The notes under the pieces were generated by a model. It was not told the DNA's origin. It saw nothing but the letters and a program-made list of their open reading frames with translations, and searched no databases. Below, piece by piece: positions 3,203 to 11,454 of a stretch of 47,047 nucleotides of DNA. Position 1 is the stretch's first letter. Every line of letters begins with the position of its first letter. A program made the position numbers and the translations under genes. The stretch comes from an uncultured Candidatus Saccharibacteria bacterium (GTDB lineage Bacteria > Patescibacteriota > Minisyncoccia > Phycocordibacterales > WO2-35-19). The stretch covers positions 1,980 through 49,026 of the forward strand of contig CAZHPR010000004.1 in the NCBI GenBank assembly GCA_964534305.1, read 5' to 3'.

Positions 3203-4138
3203 ATGGACTCAAAAGGAACAATTTTTTTGATTTTAGGGGTTTTTATCCTAATCGGACTATCATTTCAGCCACTCAAAGAAAACCTTGAGAAACAACGTTC
3301 TATGAACAACTTTGACACTAGAGAGACCTCCATAGGCAACAGTACCACATACAGTCAAAACCAAGATGTTGGTGATCAGGTCAAAGAAGCCGAACAAAGA
3401 ATAAAAAACTTAGAAAAAGAATTGGAAAAAAAGGCAGAGGAAGGTAAAAGATCTCCTTATTACAACAAAGTTGATGCTTCATGGATATCCGGACTAGGAA
3501 GCAACGATCCAAACAGAGAATTTATTAGCCTTTATACTTATCTAAATGATGGTGAGAAGGTAAATATTACTGGTTGGTATCTAAAGAGCGAAGTCACTGG
3601 ATATTTTGCTGTGATTGGCAAAGCCTCCCTACTACCATTCCCATTTACCAAAAATGATAGTGACATTATTTTGCAAAAAGGAGATCGCGCTTATATAACA
3701 AAAGGTTTCTCCCCTATAGGAATTTCTTTTCGCACAAATATGTGTACTGGGTACTTTGAAGAAAACACCGAGTTTGTACCTGGACTAGAACTAGCCTGCC
3801 CAAGAGCAATAGATGAGAAGCTTCCAACCTTTTCTTCGATCTATGACAGAAACGATGAGTGCATAAGAATCATAGAAAATATTCCAAGGTGTACAACAAG
3901 AAACGGGCAATATTTTCGAGACTTACCAGATACTGTCCCCTCTAGTTGTAGGTCTTATATAGAGACCAACGTAAACTATAATGCCTGTGTTGCAAAACAC
4001 TTTGGTGATACAAAATTTCCTGGTAACGAATACAGAATATACCTAAACAAGTTTGGGCCTCTCTGGCGCACAAGTAGAGAAAAAATAAACTTGCACGATT
4101 CAAGCGGCCTTATTGTAGATACTATTACAATATATTAG
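3203..4138 (+). CDS. Membrane-anchored secreted protein with a possible lamin-tail-like domain and a Cys-rich C-terminus
   Basis: N-terminal hydrophobic anchor (IFLILGVFILIGL) followed by a coiled-coil segment. The segment REFISLYTY..EKVNITGWYLKSEV resembles the LTD pattern (EyIEL.N...v.LsGW.L). The C-terminal half contains multiple Cys. Confidence 0.4.
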   Translation: MDSKGTIFLILGVFILIGLSFQPLKENLEKQRSMNNFDTRETSIGNSTTYSQNQDVGDQVKEAEQRIKNLEKELEKKAEEGKRSPYYNKVDASWISGLGSNDPNREFISLYTYLNDGEKVNITGWYLKSEVTGYFAVIGKASLLPFPFTKNDSDIILQKGDRAYITKGFSPIGISFRTNMCTGYFEENTEFVPGLELACPRAIDEKLPTFSSIYDRNDECIRIIENIPRCTTRNGQYFRDLPDTVPSSCRSYIETNVNYNACVAKHFGDTKFPGNEYRIYLNKFGPLWRTSREKINLHDSSGLIVDTITIY

Positions 4139-4142
4139 AGAT

Positions 4143-5246
4143 TTAGTCCCAAAATATTCTTTCGATTTGCTCTACAATGTTTTGTCCTTTGCAATGGGAA
4201 AGTATGCCAGTATACGAGCTTACAACTTGCTCAAGATATTCTTTTCTAACATATCCACTATCAAGACGAGTTTTGAGATCAAATAGTTTTTTAAGTAATC
4301 TGTTTTTAGTTTTTGTACGCAATACTCTTCGATGTGGCAACATTACATACCCAAGAAAATCCATACCTTGATAGGCTTTGCGTAAAATTATTTTATTTGG
4401 ATGCATCTCGATTAATAATTTTTCTCTGCAAAACTTTTTCAAATTTTGAATACAATTTTCTAAAAATTTTAAAGAATCAGAAACAATAACAAAATCGTCA
4501 CAATACCGAACATAACACCTCGCCTTAAGTGTATGTTTTATGTATTGATCAAGTTGATTTAAATAAACATTCGAGAATAGTTGACTTGTAACATTTCCAA
4601 GAGGTAAACCTTTGCCCGATGTAAATTCGAAAGAAAAAATGATTTGTTTTATTAAATATAGAAGTCTCTGGTCTATAATTTTTTTGGATAAAAGATCAAA
4701 CAAAATTTTATGATCTATAGAGTCAAAGAACTTCTTGATATCACATTTTAAAATGTAGCAGGATTTAGTATTATTTTTACTAACCTTGCTTAAATATTTT
4801 TCAAACGAAAATATTCCCGCATAAGTTCCTTTGGAATTTCTGGAGGAGTAGGAATGAAATATAAAACTTGGATCAAAAATTTGATACAATTTTCGATATA
4901 CAGCTTGGTAAAGAACCCTATCCCTTACACTGGCTTCATGAATTTTTCTTAGTTTTGGATCATTCTTGAAAAACACCTTATACTTATCGGGTTTCCAAAT
5001 CCCAGATACAAGCGAATTATGGAGAATAAATAAATTATTTTCTAGATTCAATTCAAATTGGGCCACATCTGGTTTTGATCGCTTCCCTTTTCTAAATTCT
5101 TTCCACGCATCCAATAAATTTTCAATACAAATTACATCATAAAAATTACAATTATGAGTACCCCCCCCCCGACACAACTCCTCCTGTTGTTCATAAGATA
5201 AGAATACTCCATCAGGATATTTATCGCACTGGTGAAAAATTTTCAA
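4143..5246 (-). CDS. Diversity-generating retroelement reverse transcriptase
   Basis: N-terminal DGR-RT pattern ENLLDAWKEFRKGKRSKPDVAQFELNLENNL...DPKLRKIHEASVRDRVLYQAV. Motif 4 is LPLGNVTSQLFSNVYLNQLD, the (I/L)GxxxSQ DGR hallmark. The catalytic motif is YVRYCDDFVIV (YxDD). It lies adjacent to a TR/VR pair. The start is uncertain: TTG at 5246 or 5177 as assembled, or ATG at 5194 if the G tract were 11 nt. Confidence 0.9.
   Translation of the reverse strand: MKIFHQCDKYPDGVFLSYEQQEELCRGGGTHNCNFYDVICIENLLDAWKEFRKGKRSKPDVAQFELNLENNLFILHNSLVSGIWKPDKYKVFFKNDPKLRKIHEASVRDRVLYQAVYRKLYQIFDPSFIFHSYSSRNSKGTYAGIFSFEKYLSKVSKNNTKSCYILKCDIKKFFDSIDHKILFDLLSKKIIDQRLLYLIKQIIFSFEFTSGKGLPLGNVTSQLFSNVYLNQLDQYIKHTLKARCYVRYCDDFVIVSDSLKFLENCIQNLKKFCREKLLIEMHPNKIILRKAYQGMDFLGYVMLPHRRVLRTKTKNRLLKKLFDLKTRLDSGYVRKEYLEQVVSSYTGILSHCKGQNIVEQIERIFWD
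5161..5170. repeat. C10 (+) / G10 (-) homopolymer inside the RT 5' coding region and the avd-frame upstream region
   Basis: Ten consecutive C at 5161-5170, bounded by a (5160) and g (5171). It encodes RGGG in the RT frame. Confidence 0.95.
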
Positions 5247-5524
5247 AACGAGATAAACTTGGTATTCACGCGGTTATAGAATCTCTATGTATAGAAATAC
5301 TATCTCTTTCAATTGGGGCAGCTTTAAAACCAAAGGGTTTAAAGCTGTACACCTTGGAAGTATTGCGTATAAAAATTGGAGTTATACAGAATTTAATAAG
5401 ATCAGAAAACGAAATTGGTATTATTGACCCAAAAACTTATATAAGAATCTCCGGGCAATTAGTAGAAATTTCAAAGATGGTAAACGGGTGGATAAACTTT
5501 GTATTAGGGAAAGAGTCTCCATAA
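5171..5524 (+). CDS. avd: Avd-like accessory variability determinant (four-helix-bundle family); no canonical start codon with the tract as assembled
   Basis: Not in the ORF track. The + frame is open from 5096 to the stop at 5522-5524 and reads ...VVHKIRILHQDIYRTGEKFSKRDKLGIHAVIESLCIEILSLSIGAALKPKGLKLYTLEVLRIKIGVIQNLIRSENEIGIIDPKTYIRISGQLVEISKMVNGWINFVLGKESP*. It matches Avd / 23S-IVS four-helix-bundle patterns as I recall them: F(P/S)KxxKxxLG, and a C-terminal E(I/V)xKMxxGWI. The first in-frame ATG/GTG/TTG is TTG at 5354. ATG at 5154 becomes in frame only if the C tract is 11 nt (or 8). Confidence 0.6.
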   Translation, partial: DTTPPVVHKIRILHQDIYRTGEKFSKRDKLGIHAVIESLCIEILSLSIGAALKPKGLKLYTLEVLRIKIGVIQNLIRSENEIGIIDPKTYIRISGQLVEISKMVNGWINFVLGKESP

Positions 5525-5550
5525 AATATGAAGACTCTTCTGACCCAGAA

Positions 5551-5666
5551 ATTTCCAGGCGAGCACCCCCGTTCGGATTCTTGTAGTCCGGATTGTTCCA
5601 GCTGAACCTCACCTTGTGGTTGTCGGGGTTCCAGTTGCCGTTCGCGACCTTGCCGGAAGGCAGACG
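5551..5666 (-). repeat. DGR template repeat (TR)
   Basis: 116 bp aligning without gaps to 5968-6083. The 17 mismatches are all T on the + strand here, which is A on the - strand. In the VR frame it encodes LPSGKVANGNWNPDNHKVRFSWNNPDYKNPNGGARLEI, with 8 Asn AAY codons. Confidence 0.95.
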
Positions 5667-5945
5667 CCCATATTAGCACCGCACTTTGTCCTTATCACCG
5701 GAAATCATTTATATTTTAAATAATTTCTTGAGTTATCTTTTCATGAGTAGAGGTATCACGAGTATATTCGTGCATAGTATAAAATGTGGCACGCAATTTC
5801 TTTATTTTGGCAAATTGTTATCCTGTTTTTGATAGAATCAATTTAACAGCCAATTTTTATTATATAAAAAGAAGTGACGGAGACCAAACGAGATCTCCGC
5901 CACACCGCTTCCCTCTTGCAGAAAAATTGAACAATGGAAGAAGAT

Positions 5946-6743
5946 TTAAGCAAGAAGGGGAACTTGGATTGCCAGGCGAGCACCCCCGCACGGATTCCCG
6001 CAGTCCGGATAGTCCCAGCTGAACCCCACCCTGCGGCTGCCGGGGTGCCAGTCGCCGAACGCGACCTTGCCGGAAGGCAGACGATTGTTTGGAAACCAGG
6101 TAAAAGTCCTGGGGTCCAGATATTGCCGCGTCACCGAATAATGGAGACCAAGAGCAAAGGCGTACCCACGCTGACTTAGCCAGTTTTTGCCCCTTGCAAC
6201 CAACTGATCAGGCGACATATTCATCGTGTCTTCGTCCGGCTCGATTGAATTGTTGATGAAGTGTAGTGTCGGTCCATCATTTGCTCCCGAGCCGGAATAA
6301 TGCACCACATCCATCTCTTCATAAACCGCAAGTCCAAGGCTTTTCAGGGCCTTTTCGACAGCATCCCGATTGGTGAGTCCGCCCGGATCAAAGACCGGGA
6401 TCACACTCCTCCAAGGAAGGGTGTCGGGAATAGCAAACCGTTCGCGAAAACGGATTTCAACTCCGAGATAATCCTTCGCAAACTTCTCTGCCTCCCTGAG
6501 CCACTGATCCGGGTCGGTATCTGTCGTACTGAACATGATGGGCGGGGCGACAATTGACGGCTCCACACTTTCCGACTGTGGGAGAACGAACCCGCGACAG
6601 ATAGCCGCCGGAAGTTCTTCAAGATGCTGCTCGTACCAGAAGATTTCAGCTTCGGTCAGAGCGAGAAAATTGGGGACTGCTTTGAGTCCCAAGTTATAGG
6701 CACGTTTGACTAAGGGTGTGTCCATTGGACGTTTCCTTTTCAC
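5946..6743 (-). CDS. DGR target (variable) protein with a C-terminal VR, probable C-type-lectin-like fold
   Basis: 265 aa with a GTG start. The last 45 aa or so, ...LPSGKVAFGDWHPGSRRVGFSWDYPDCGNPCGGARLAIQVPLLA, are encoded by the VR. The VR ends 7 codons before the stop, which is the canonical position. The gene is visibly GC-rich relative to its neighbours. Confidence 0.85.
   Translation of the reverse strand: MKRKRPMDTPLVKRAYNLGLKAVPNFLALTEAEIFWYEQHLEELPAAICRGFVLPQSESVEPSIVAPPIMFSTTDTDPDQWLREAEKFAKDYLGVEIRFRERFAIPDTLPWRSVIPVFDPGGLTNRDAVEKALKSLGLAVYEEMDVVHYSGSGANDGPTLHFINNSIEPDEDTMNMSPDQLVARGKNWLSQRGYAFALGLHYSVTRQYLDPRTFTWFPNNRLPSGKVAFGDWHPGSRRVGFSWDYPDCGNPCGGARLAIQVPLLA
5968..6083 (-). repeat. 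DGR variable repeat (VR)
   Basis: Counterpart of the TR. 14 codons are altered by 17 substitutions (A to G x11, A to T x4, A to C x2 on the coding strand). The 3'-terminal 16 nt on the coding strand (GGGGGTGCTCGCCTGG, + 5972-5987) are identical to the TR at 5555-5570 and contain no A, which is IMH-like. Confidence 0.95.
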
Positions 6744-9075: not shown

Positions 9076-11454
9076 CTATTTCATATTACCCCAGTTGTCA
9101 CCCAGGCTACTATTTACCACAATCGGTACTCCTAGGGTTTCTTCTTTAGTCAGCGCCGTTTCCATTATTGATTTTATCTTCGGTATCACTTCTTCCACAA
9201 CACTATTATCAACCTCATAAATAATTTCATCATGTATTTGAAGTATCAGATTCACTTTTTCTCGCAAACCATTACTTTCTACAAAATTATCTACATCTCG
9301 CATTGCAATCTTTGTAAGATCGGCACTTGTCCCTTGGATCGGAGCATTGATCGCCATCCTCTCAGAGGCAGCCTTTATAAAAGGTATCTTTGATTTTATA
9401 CCCTCAAAATATCTACGCCTACCAAAAAATGTTTTGGTAAAGCCAAGTCTCTCAGCCTCGACTTTTGTATTTTCCAAATACTCTGCCAGACCAGAAAAAG
9501 TCTCAAAGTATTTGTTGTAAAACTCCTGAGCCGTCTTCCTGTCGGTGCCGAGGTTTTGTTGCAAAGCGGTTACTCCCATACCATAAAGTATCCCGAAGTT
9601 TATCACCTTGGCCTGTCTCCTCATCTCCTTGGTCACATCCTCTTCTTTTACATTATAAACCTCACTTGCCACCGCCGAATGCACGTCCTTACCGCTTTTA
9701 AATATTTCTACAAGTTTTTTGTCTTTTGATAGGAAAGCAGCGATACGAAGTTCAACCTGAGAATAATCAAAAGCAACAAGTTTTTTGTCTTTATCAGCAA
9801 CAAAGGCATTTCTTATCACTCTACCTCTCTCCGTACCGATTGGAATATTTTGTAAATTTGGATTTTGTGATGCCATCCTGCCCGTCGTACTCCCGGAGAG
9901 AACAAACCTCGCATGAAGCCTGTTATCAGTTCCTACGAGAGTTTGCATCGGCTCAAGATAGGTAGAAATAAGTTTTGATATTTCTCTGTACTCAAGGATT
10001 AGAGGTATGATCTGGTGAGTATCTTTGAGTTTTTCTAGCTCTGATTCTCTAGTAGATCGCGCTCCACCGGAAGTCTTTTTCAGATTCTTTGCATACAACC
10101 CCAATTTATCAAAAAGTATTTCTCCGAGCTGTTTTGGTGAAGAGATATTAAACTCTACTCCAGCTTCTTTCCAAATACTTTTTTCTATTACCCCAAGCTC
10201 CTTTTTGTATTTGTCTGCCAGACTTTTGATAAAGACGGTGTCTAGCTTTACCCCATACTCTTGCATCCTCCTTACAACCGGAATTAACGGTTTCTCTATT
10301 TGTTCAAAAACCTCCAAACTTTCTCTTCTTTTTAATTCTTCAAAAACAACCTCTCTCGCTTCTTTAAAGTTTTTTGTGTTGGCAAAGTTTAGTATATCCT
10401 CTAGTTTGGGATCTGTTATGTTTGAGTCGGCAACCCAAAGAGCTAGAGAAGTTTCGGCTATCTCATCTTCTTTTATGTCTTCTTGTGTTTGTTCCTGTAT
10501 TTCTCTACCGTTCTTTTTTAGCACCTCTTGAAGTTTGCTGAGCATATTACGAAACTGCAATTCTCCAAAGAGTCTCTGGGCTTTATCTAGATCAATACCT
10601 TCTTTCCAACTTTTTTCTGGTAACTCAAAGTTGATCGGGGCATCTTTTCTTATTGTCGCAAGCATTTCACTAAACCTTGCCTCTTCTTCCCCTTCTTTGA
10701 GCAATTCAACAATCCTTTTCTTTATCCCCTTTTTTATAAAAACATCTTCATCTTTTTTAAGGGTTTTGTATATATTTTCAATGCTACCAAAATTGACTAT
10801 CAAATCTGTTGCTGATTTTTCTCCAATACCCTCTATGCCGATTATGTTGTCAGAAGGGTCTCCCCGCAAACCTTTAAAACTTGGCAAAAGCTTCGGTCCA
10901 AAACCAAACCTTTCTATCACCGCCTTCTCATCATAGAGAATCGTATCGTTCAAACCTTTTTTCAAAGTGTAAACCCGAACCTTATCATCATCTACCAGTT
11001 GCATCGTGTCCATATCCCCCGAGGCGATTATAATCTCTATCTCTTTATCCAATCGATCTTTGAGTTCTTCAACTATCGTCCCTAGGATATCATCAGCTTC
11101 AAATCCAGGATGAGAATAGATAGGGATACCGAGAGCGGTGCAAACATTTTTTGATTTTTCCATTTGAGAAACAAGCTCTGGATCAGACTTGGCTCTGCCG
11201 GCCTTGTAGTTTTCGTACACTTCGTGCCTATAGGTCGGCTTGGGCAAATCGTAACAAGCAATAATATGATCTGGTTTAAGATCAGAGGCAATCTTGAGTA
11301 TCATTGTAGAAAGTCCATAAAGAGCCCCAGTCGGCTCTCCGCTACTAGTCGCAAAGTCAGGCAGAGCGTGGTAGGCCCGATGCAAAATCGCATGGGCATC
11401 AAGTAATACCAGCCTCTCCTTAATACTTTTTGCGTTTTTAGAAGTCTTTACCAT
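9076..11454 (-). CDS. polA: DNA polymerase I (5'-3' exonuclease + polymerase domains)
   Basis: The N-terminal FEN domain shows LLDAHAILHRAYHA and GIEGIGEKSA. The polymerase domain shows motif A (LVAFDYSQVELRI), motif B (RRQAKVINFGILYGM) and motif C (LQIHDEIIYE). The start is taken at ATG 11454; the ORF track's TTG at 11469 is also possible. Confidence 0.9.
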   Translation of the reverse strand: MVKTSKNAKSIKERLVLLDAHAILHRAYHALPDFATSSGEPTGALYGLSTMILKIASDLKPDHIIACYDLPKPTYRHEVYENYKAGRAKSDPELVSQMEKSKNVCTALGIPIYSHPGFEADDILGTIVEELKDRLDKEIEIIIASGDMDTMQLVDDDKVRVYTLKKGLNDTILYDEKAVIERFGFGPKLLPSFKGLRGDPSDNIIGIEGIGEKSATDLIVNFGSIENIYKTLKKDEDVFIKKGIKKRIVELLKEGEEEARFSEMLATIRKDAPINFELPEKSWKEGIDLDKAQRLFGELQFRNMLSKLQEVLKKNGREIQEQTQEDIKEDEIAETSLALWVADSNITDPKLEDILNFANTKNFKEAREVVFEELKRRESLEVFEQIEKPLIPVVRRMQEYGVKLDTVFIKSLADKYKKELGVIEKSIWKEAGVEFNISSPKQLGEILFDKLGLYAKNLKKTSGGARSTRESELEKLKDTHQIIPLILEYREISKLISTYLEPMQTLVGTDNRLHARFVLSGSTTGRMASQNPNLQNIPIGTERGRVIRNAFVADKDKKLVAFDYSQVELRIAAFLSKDKKLVEIFKSGKDVHSAVASEVYNVKEEDVTKEMRRQAKVINFGILYGMGVTALQQNLGTDRKTAQEFYNKYFETFSGLAEYLENTKVEAERLGFTKTFFGRRRYFEGIKSKIPFIKAASERMAINAPIQGTSADLTKIAMRDVDNFVESNGLREKVNLILQIHDEIIYEVDNSVVEEVIPKIKSIMETALTKEETLGVPIVVNSSLGDNWGNMK

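Follow-up and report, generated by a model that had tools for sequence, protein, structure and literature searches.

The stretch of DNA analysed here (the window; 47,047 nt of contig CAZHPR010000004.1, assembly GCA_964534305.1, from an uncultured Candidatus Saccharibacteria bacterium) contained a diversity-generating retroelement (DGR) in which avd and the reverse transcriptase (RT) gene started head-to-head and overlapped by approximately 40 nt. A run of ten G:C pairs was located within this overlap. Because the tract was positioned between each ATG and the corresponding gene body, its length fixed the reading frame of both genes together. The locus is a genuine chromosomal DGR of the 'TR-(avd)-RT' type (TR, template repeat) of the candidate phyla radiation (CPR). 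This ordinary DGR is probably gated by a slipped-strand homopolymer switch, with the window population now in the off phase. With less assurance, the balance tips towards the view that the G:C tract in the avd/RT start overlap is a dedicated contingency switch and that a large clade of CPR DGRs has conserved it. The assemblies compared showed the anatomy of the tract, its conservation and its variation in length, and one sibling strain was found in both phases.

The avd/RT start overlap and its DGR

The avd gene, which was overlooked in the initial annotation of the window, was found in the interval from TR to RT, on the strand opposite to theirs, and its body was intact. Its ATG was followed by AGT A and then by ten C; the tract thus began 4 nt past the ATG, and the ATG and the gene body were off by one base as assembled. 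After the tract, no in-frame ATG, GTG or TTG was present in the body before codon 61. Two conserved RT ATGs, one 24 nt upstream of the tract (5194) and the other at 5212, would be brought into frame by G11 or G8 but were out of frame with G10, with which the only RT starts were TTG codons (5246 and 5177). The RT ATG was antisense to the His codon of the Avd sequence 'IIH', and the avd ATG was antisense to a His codon of the RT. The tract was the sole G/C run of at least 7 nt in the 47-kb window. When its length was varied in silico from C8 to C14, the C8, C11 and C14 versions yielded both a 122-124-aa Avd from the ATG at 5154 and an ATG-initiated RT.

The initial annotation had described the DGR as complete and intact. 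The element was complete in that all parts were present, avd included, which the annotation itself had not located. Intactness did not stand, since the avd ATG and the conserved RT ATG were one base out of frame across C10/G10. These out-of-frame ATGs are a conserved design feature of the clade, not decay.

The C11 version of avd encoded a 123-aa product that matched the Pfam profile bAvd (positions 4-106 of 107, 1e-9), the NCBIfam profile DivGenRetAVD (positions 2-103 of 104, 9e-10) and phrog_3206, 'Avd protein of DGR' (5e-14). The Avd profile scores fell just under the curated cut-offs, and the profiles were covered over their full length. A bAvd match was obtained for all 14 relatives checked. 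In relatives with avd in frame, the protein was called as MSTPPAS.., MSTPPDK.. or MTPPP.., which fits ATG AGT ACC CCC of the window. An in-frame Avd of the window strain was not found in the protein collection. Comparison of the Avd profile with PDB sequences gave no meaningful match, and a scan of viral contigs with this profile gave no relatives.

On the RT strand, a perfect Shine-Dalgarno-like AGGAGG was present at 5178-5185 (minus strand), just upstream of the tract. After it came a TTG, whose frame is right with G10, and a GTG, whose frame is right with G9 or G12; RT may therefore keep some translation in each phase, unlike avd. Only some relatives had similar purine-rich motifs.

A repeat search of the window aligned TR with the variable repeat (VR) over 116 nt without gaps at 85% identity. 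Base-by-base comparison gave 99 identities and 17 mismatches, all 17 of them at TR adenines (T on the plus strand, which is A on the minus coding strand), where VR had C in 11 cases, A in 4 and G in 2 (plus strand). Accordingly, 17 of the 31 TR adenines were changed in VR, with 14 codons affected and only codon positions 1 or 2 involved; the probability that 17 mismatches would all fall among 31 adenine positions of 116 was 2.6e-12. TR contained eight AAY codons. Apart from the percentage identity, the codon positions and the probability, these values, together with the coordinates of the repeats and the peptides encoded, had been given in the initial annotation and were reproduced. It had further stated that the last 16 nt of the repeat were A-free and identical in both copies. 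A GC-rich, A-free block of 16 nt, GGGGGTGCTCGCCTGG, was indeed identical in TR and VR; it was not strictly terminal, being followed by one A-to-C mismatch and then AAT. When the boundary was checked for an initiation of mutagenic homing (IMH/IMH*) arrangement, TR was found to continue beyond the shared block into TTCT and a hairpin, and VR into unrelated sequence with a hairpin 65 nt away. The claimed position of VR at the C-terminal end of ORF (open reading frame) 5946-6743 was confirmed: VR ended 7 codons ahead of the stop. No second VR was found in the 47-kb window.

The RT open reading frame carried LGNVTSQ and YCDD, i.e., the LGxxxSQ and YxDD motifs noted in the initial annotation. It matched Pfam RVT_1 (2e-24) and the phage RT family phrog_1423 (1e-96). 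The best PDB sequence match was 8ub7_A, a 328-aa protein taken as an RT from its name and length (2e-37, 132 bits), ahead of a group II intron RT (4e-21, 79 bits); retron or Drt RTs also ranked lower than 8ub7_A. Phage RTs, including those of Vibrio phage VP585 and Bordetella phages, were approximately 34% identical over 96% of the RT length, and known DGR phages were among them. Judged by profile and PDB match scores, the RT groups with DGR RTs and not with group II intron RTs. Adenine-only divergence, the position of VR at the target 3' end, the affinity of the RT, the presence of Avd and the TR/VR signature found throughout the family upheld the earlier identification of the locus as a DGR.

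By analogy with the Bordetella phage DGR, TR would be transcribed from the minus strand, and RT and Avd would copy the TR RNA into complementary DNA, misreading template adenines. This DNA would replace VR at the target 3' end, so that up to 14 or more codons of the C-terminal binding surface would be recoded. Slipped-strand mispairing at the tract during replication would change the tract length. With C8 or C11, both ATGs would be in frame and the system would be on; with C10, avd would have no usable start and RT only weak TTG starts, i.e., the system would be off. The mutagenesis machinery would thus be switched on and off stochastically by tract length. Two parts of this scheme are inferred, namely a need for Avd in this clade and control of retrohoming rates by the switch.

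Conservation and length polymorphism of the tract

Related loci were collected with two profiles: the target profile returned 23 genome loci, and the Avd profile returned 80 metagenome loci (L-numbers below denote related loci or contigs, and P-numbers denote the proteins compared). All genome relatives were CPR metagenome-assembled genomes assigned to Saccharibacteria, Taylorbacteria and Parcubacteria. The same layout with recognisable TR and VR was present in 77 related loci, where 1363 of 1431 mismatches fell at TR adenines. A homologous pure G:C run was found in 83 unique loci. Its length ranged from 5 to 12 nt with a mode of 10 and was distributed as follows: 5 nt in 3 loci, 6 in 1, 7 in 6, 8 in 10, 9 in 22, 10 in 31, 11 in 9 and 12 in 1. 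A length ceiling at G10, a hint of artefact among the first 15 loci, was rejected because C11 and C12 tracts occurred among the 80 metagenome loci. In the 14 loci checked, the Avd bodies were open frames of 116-123 codons, and the RT frames of relatives were mostly open (310-366 aa).

In all 20 loci that could be scored for both genes, the avd ATG and the conserved RT ATG demanded the same tract phase. Among the 67 loci with an ATG beside the tract, avd was in frame in 11, one base over in 39 and one base short in 17. The in-frame state was found for 9 of 18 tracts of up to 8 nt vs 2 of 49 tracts of at least 9 nt (Fisher 5e-5).

Gene callers handled this region poorly. No avd was called in L001, L003 and L125, and a 58-aa avd fragment was called in L122-L124; RT was shortened to 277-322 aa in L002/L003 and L122-L125. 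Since avd and RT were missed or truncated, the number of Avd genes in this clade may be underestimated in automated DGR surveys.

In the window strain, C10 was present in four assemblies, namely the window and three per-run assemblies, and those per-run assemblies that spanned VR had a VR consensus identical to that of the window. The per-run assemblies ended near VR (L108 at 5937, L110 at 6150 and L107 at 6458); these breaks could reflect read-level VR heterogeneity or low coverage. Tract length also agreed within 6 other pairs of independent assemblies. It differed, however, between several sequences that were otherwise nearly identical: L071/L073 (C10) vs L072 (C9), with 0 and 1 substitutions in approximately 1385 nt; L013 (C10) vs L111 (C9), with 0 substitutions in 1677 nt; and L053 (C9) vs L054 (C10), with few differences elsewhere. 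The last pair had 12 VR differences, all at TR adenines.

Both phases were found in a sibling strain (target P0009, Avd P0059), in which 15 target variants were identical over residues 25-246 and differed in VR only. Eleven usable assemblies from three projects were compared; L126, a contig with 2.5x coverage full of indels, was left out. Six assemblies had C10, with both ATGs in frame, and contained four VR alleles. Five had C9, out of frame, and four of these five shared one common VR allele. C9 and C10 were both found in each of the three projects. Some of the VR alleles differed solely in the 3'-most variable codons, as expected if retrohoming starts at the VR 3' end.

A separate observation concerned short clusters of substitutions (7-19 single-nucleotide differences in 11-250 nt, often multiples of 3 apart) that parted otherwise identical contigs and were unrelated to TR. 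They were present in L053 at 3286-3342 vs L054, in L002 vs L003 (L002 at approximately 9158-9407, in a DHH/RecJ-like gene) and in L122 at 4051-4061 vs L123 and L127. These patches look like small recombination or gene-conversion tracts.

Weighing of alternative explanations

Several observations weigh against a slipped-strand switch. The window strain showed C10 alone and one VR consensus in all assemblies compared. For tracts of at least 9 nt, the in-frame share (2 of 49) was far under the one third that would result if the phase drifted freely (P = 1e-6), and the ATG-to-tract-end distance peaked sharply at 16 nt, i.e., one base too many, no matter whether 6 or 7 nt separated the ATG from the tract (Fisher 7e-5); the related loci share phylogeny, and these counts are not independent. 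Many relatives had a TTG shortly (three codons) after the tract, a possible start of a slightly shorter Avd that was absent from the window. In L010 (5330-5362), the tract was interrupted (GGGTGGTGGGGG), and the avd ATG was still one base out of frame; this locus could be a locked-off element, could have a TTG-initiated Avd or could hint at ribosomal frameshifting. Tract lengths were read from assemblies, so that heterogeneity of the tract within populations and its reversibility are presumed, and contig naming suggests that L013, a member of one polymorphic pair, is a long-read assembly. Finally, only in the Bordetella system is Avd known to be required.

Part of these data would also follow if the DGR were the same and RNA polymerase or +1/-1 ribosomal slippage on CCC-C (Pro)/GGG-G (Gly) corrected the frame in some molecules. 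Out-of-frame genotypes would in that case express Avd and RT constitutively but weakly, and changes in DNA length would only tune this expression. This possibility, the main rival of the switch, is not the one we favour, and we regard it as rather unlikely, though deserving of serious attention. The prevalence of the state with one extra base (39 of 67) and the favoured 16-nt distance speak for it, as does the retention of this state in L010 with its non-slippery interrupted tract. The near absence of the in-frame state in long tracts and its frequency in short ones are expected if long runs slip efficiently, CCC-C is a +1-prone site for tRNA-Pro, and L053 and L054 were both out of frame, yet had 12 VR differences at adenine positions. 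However, corrections would be needed in both directions (-1 nt in 39 loci and +1 nt in 17), which is a poor fit to a single programmed frameshift, and transcriptional slippage is best documented on A/T runs, not on G/C runs. The sibling strain was in frame in 6 of 11 assemblies, with more VR alleles, whereas four of its out-of-frame assemblies had one VR, and this fits a switch at the DNA level. The DNA switch and slippage of RNA polymerase or ribosome are not exclusive, and expression could be high, low or off depending on tract length.

The remaining explanations have little in their favour. That the frame problem is a sequencing or assembly artefact in a homopolymer, or that avd is dead in a decaying element, is very improbable. 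Homopolymers are error-prone, L126 was indel-ridden at its low coverage, and L013 seems to be a long-read assembly; however, C10 was repeated in four assemblies, tract lengths were repeated in the 6 other pairs, and the two lengths of the sibling strain were each backed by 5-6 independent assemblies. Decay is at odds with the open, conserved Avd bodies (14 loci checked) and with the mostly open and conserved RT frames, and both views are at odds with the maintenance of a pure homopolymer in approximately 80 loci of AT-rich genomes despite approximately 45% protein divergence. It is just as doubtful that the tract is a spacer or an element of the untranslated region that tunes divergent promoters, as the poly-C/poly-G spacers of Bordetella fim and Neisseria porA do, with Avd starting downstream. 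The tract is flanked by divergent genes, a -10-like CATAGT/CATAAT hexamer follows it on the RT strand, and many relatives have the TTG three codons past it. Nevertheless, a promoter scan and manual inspection revealed no promoter-like hexamer pair bracketing the tract, and the counts were not above those of shuffled sequences; the spacer was therefore rejected as the main explanation. It also fits poorly with the absence of a canonical start in the window before codon 61 of the 117-codon avd body, with the calling of in-frame relatives as M-S/T-(T)-P-P from the ATG upstream of the tract and with the common phase asked for by both ATGs in 20 of 20 loci. Finally, the view that the locus is not a DGR at all, and that a group II intron or retron RT stands beside a chance repeat, is effectively refuted. 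The top NCBIfam model for the RT was group II intron RT/maturase (group_II_RT_mat), and no DGR RT model was among the NCBIfam matches. However, its score of 135 bits was far under the 300-bit cut-off, the retron St85 RT model likewise scored 65 bits vs a cut-off of 235, and Rfam found no intron or retron RNA in the window, its matches being three tRNAs only. The bias of the mismatches towards adenines, the avd gene and the family-wide TR/VR signature argue against this view as well.

Other features of the locus, known systems and significance

The coordinates of the features are collected in Table 1.

Table 1. Features of the DGR locus, with positions given in the window
Feature	Position	Strand	Description
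C10 (+)/G10 (-) homopolymer	5161-5170		Within the head-to-head avd/RT overlap; proposed slipped-strand switch
avd	5154-5524	+	ATG 5154-5156, C10 tract, 117-codon body 5171-5521, stop 5522-5524; inverted relative to RT, TR and target
RT open reading frame as assembled	4143-5246	-	367 aa from TTG 5246; second in-frame TTG at 5177
Hairpin	5507-5546	-	Directly downstream of TR, spans the avd stop codon; minimum free energy -21 kcal/mol
Motif GGAAATTTCT	5547-5556	-	TR 3' boundary; family consensus [GA]GAA[AG]TTTCTC
Template repeat (TR)	5551-5666	-	31 adenines, 17 differing in VR
GC-rich hairpin, 12 bp, with T run	5874-5903	-	43 nt past the target stop codon; found by terminator scan
Target gene	5946-6725	-	259 aa from ATG 6725 by gene caller; open reading frame open to GTG 6743
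Variable repeat (VR)	5968-6083	-	Codons 221-258 of ORF 5946-6743, i.e., 215-252 of the 259-aa product; coincides with the variable columns of the protein family

The motif at the TR boundary was present at the same place in 59 of 64 related loci examined. Approximately 10 nt past its start, a hairpin was found at the same site in 56 of 57 related loci (z < -2 vs shuffled sequences; median z -3.85, median 13 pairs). Folding of each sequence separately against its shuffles revealed 42 different inner-arm sequences among these hairpins, which indicates that the structure has been maintained and the sequence has varied freely. RNAalifold on a MAFFT alignment of this hairpin gave no structure because the variable arms misaligned. 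Most of the hairpins consisted of an A-run, a GC stem and a U-run. Lying where the avd and TR units converge, the hairpin is likely a bidirectional terminator and/or an element of the DGR RNA, and it may serve as a handle on the template RNA. If it does terminate the TR transcript, RT would not be co-transcribed with TR.

The target protein belonged to a family with 54 metagenomic homologues and no Pfam domain, composed of unannotated CPR proteins, and the variable columns of this family were concentrated in the C-terminal VR. An AlphaFold (AF2) model of the target had a predicted local distance difference test score (pLDDT) of 89. Foldseek comparison of this model with PDB gave weak matches (E > 0.1) to C-type lectins, formylglycine-generating enzyme and Mtd, and no significant match was obtained in PDB or BFVD. 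A C-type lectin or Ig fold is typical of DGR targets, although it does not define them. The GC-rich hairpin downstream of the target stop codon is either the target-gene terminator or an inverted repeat such as that found downstream of some VRs.

The GC content of the target gene was 54% vs 30-34% for RT and avd in the window. In the ten loci checked (the window, L001, L002, L004, L006, L013, L017, L018, L020 and L024), the target genes had 50-60% GC, the adjacent avd and RT 29-43% and the flanks 33-51%. Recent horizontal transfer of a GC-rich target gene was rejected because the same contrast was present in 10 of 10 loci; it is therefore a trait of the target family. The target coding strand was not specifically adenine-depleted (22% A).

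Residues 1-45 of the target (6590-6725), a helical N-terminal module beginning with MDTPLVKRAYNLGLKAVPNF..., were 60-78% identical to other CPR proteins (P0045-P0054). The proteins sharing this module were 210-260 aa long, and most had a different C-terminal part, without a VR domain. The module of approximately 45 aa may serve as a common anchoring or interaction module. The target homologue P0014 (L112-L121) occurred on 23 contigs, drawn from many samples, without any sequence difference; it was invariant and had no adjacent DGR. P0014 had been considered as a source of tract variants and was dropped as an orphan, since the gene calls within 2.6 kb included neither RT nor avd. Upstream of RT in window coordinates, a gene at 3203-4138 encoded a 311-aa protein with an N-terminal hydrophobic segment and a weak match to the Lamin-tail domain (E 0.005), and this protein was exactly conserved in three other run assemblies.

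The statement of the initial annotation that DGRs are a known class, common in CPR genomes, agreed with published data: in the portions of Wu et al. 2018 (PMC5758913) used here, TR-(avd)-RT is the B3 architecture, which made up 90% of the CPR DGR set. The locus resembled these DGRs in having a target with a C-terminal VR, TR, an inverted avd and RT in the same order and orientation, in its chromosomal location among housekeeping genes and in a target without a recognisable domain. In contrast, the same portions of that survey do not mention a head-to-head avd/RT overlap, a G:C homopolymer or a hairpin after TR (PMC5758913).

With the DGR of Bordetella phage BPP-1 (mtd-avd-TR-brt), the locus shared the adenine-specific flow from TR to VR, an AAY-rich TR, VR at the target 3' end, a GC-rich A-free 3' boundary, the pairing of Avd with RT and an RT with 8ub7_A as its best PDB match. 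In BPP-1, however, all genes are on one strand and avd is upstream of TR; its target, a phage tail fibre, clearly has a C-type lectin fold, whereas the fold match of the window target was weak. We know of no homopolymer in the BPP-1 DGR.

The tract itself resembled the contingency loci of Campylobacter, Neisseria, Haemophilus and Helicobacter, in which a pure G:C run of approximately 8-11 nt lies just past the start codon in an AT-rich genome, run length varies between otherwise identical sequences and length modulo 3 decides translation. The known contingency loci switch surface structures, restriction-modification enzymes and methyltransferases, whereas in the window one tract serves two overlapping divergent genes and the proposed object of switching is a targeted mutator. 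A single tract controlling two divergent genes is also found in hifA/hifB of Haemophilus influenzae (TA repeat); in that case, the tract lies in overlapping promoters and alters the -10/-35 spacing, whereas in the window it lies in overlapping coding 5' ends and alters the reading frame. No description of a homopolymer switch in a DGR was found in the literature searched; Paul et al. 2017 was outside that search, so an earlier mention is possible. As a DGR, the locus is an ordinary member of a known group, and the shared homopolymer gate would be new in DGR organisation.

In practical terms, avd and RT of such genomes will often escape gene callers and DGR finders or be reported in truncated form, as happened in several of the loci compared here. 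Little is known of how DGR activity is controlled in cells, and mutating a working protein without restraint should carry a cost. If the tract does act as proposed, an on/off gate encoded in the sequence would provide a concrete mechanism of DGR regulation and an example of second-order evolvability, i.e., a mutable switch over a mutator. In such a population, most cells would keep a frozen target protein, while a minority would actively diversify it.

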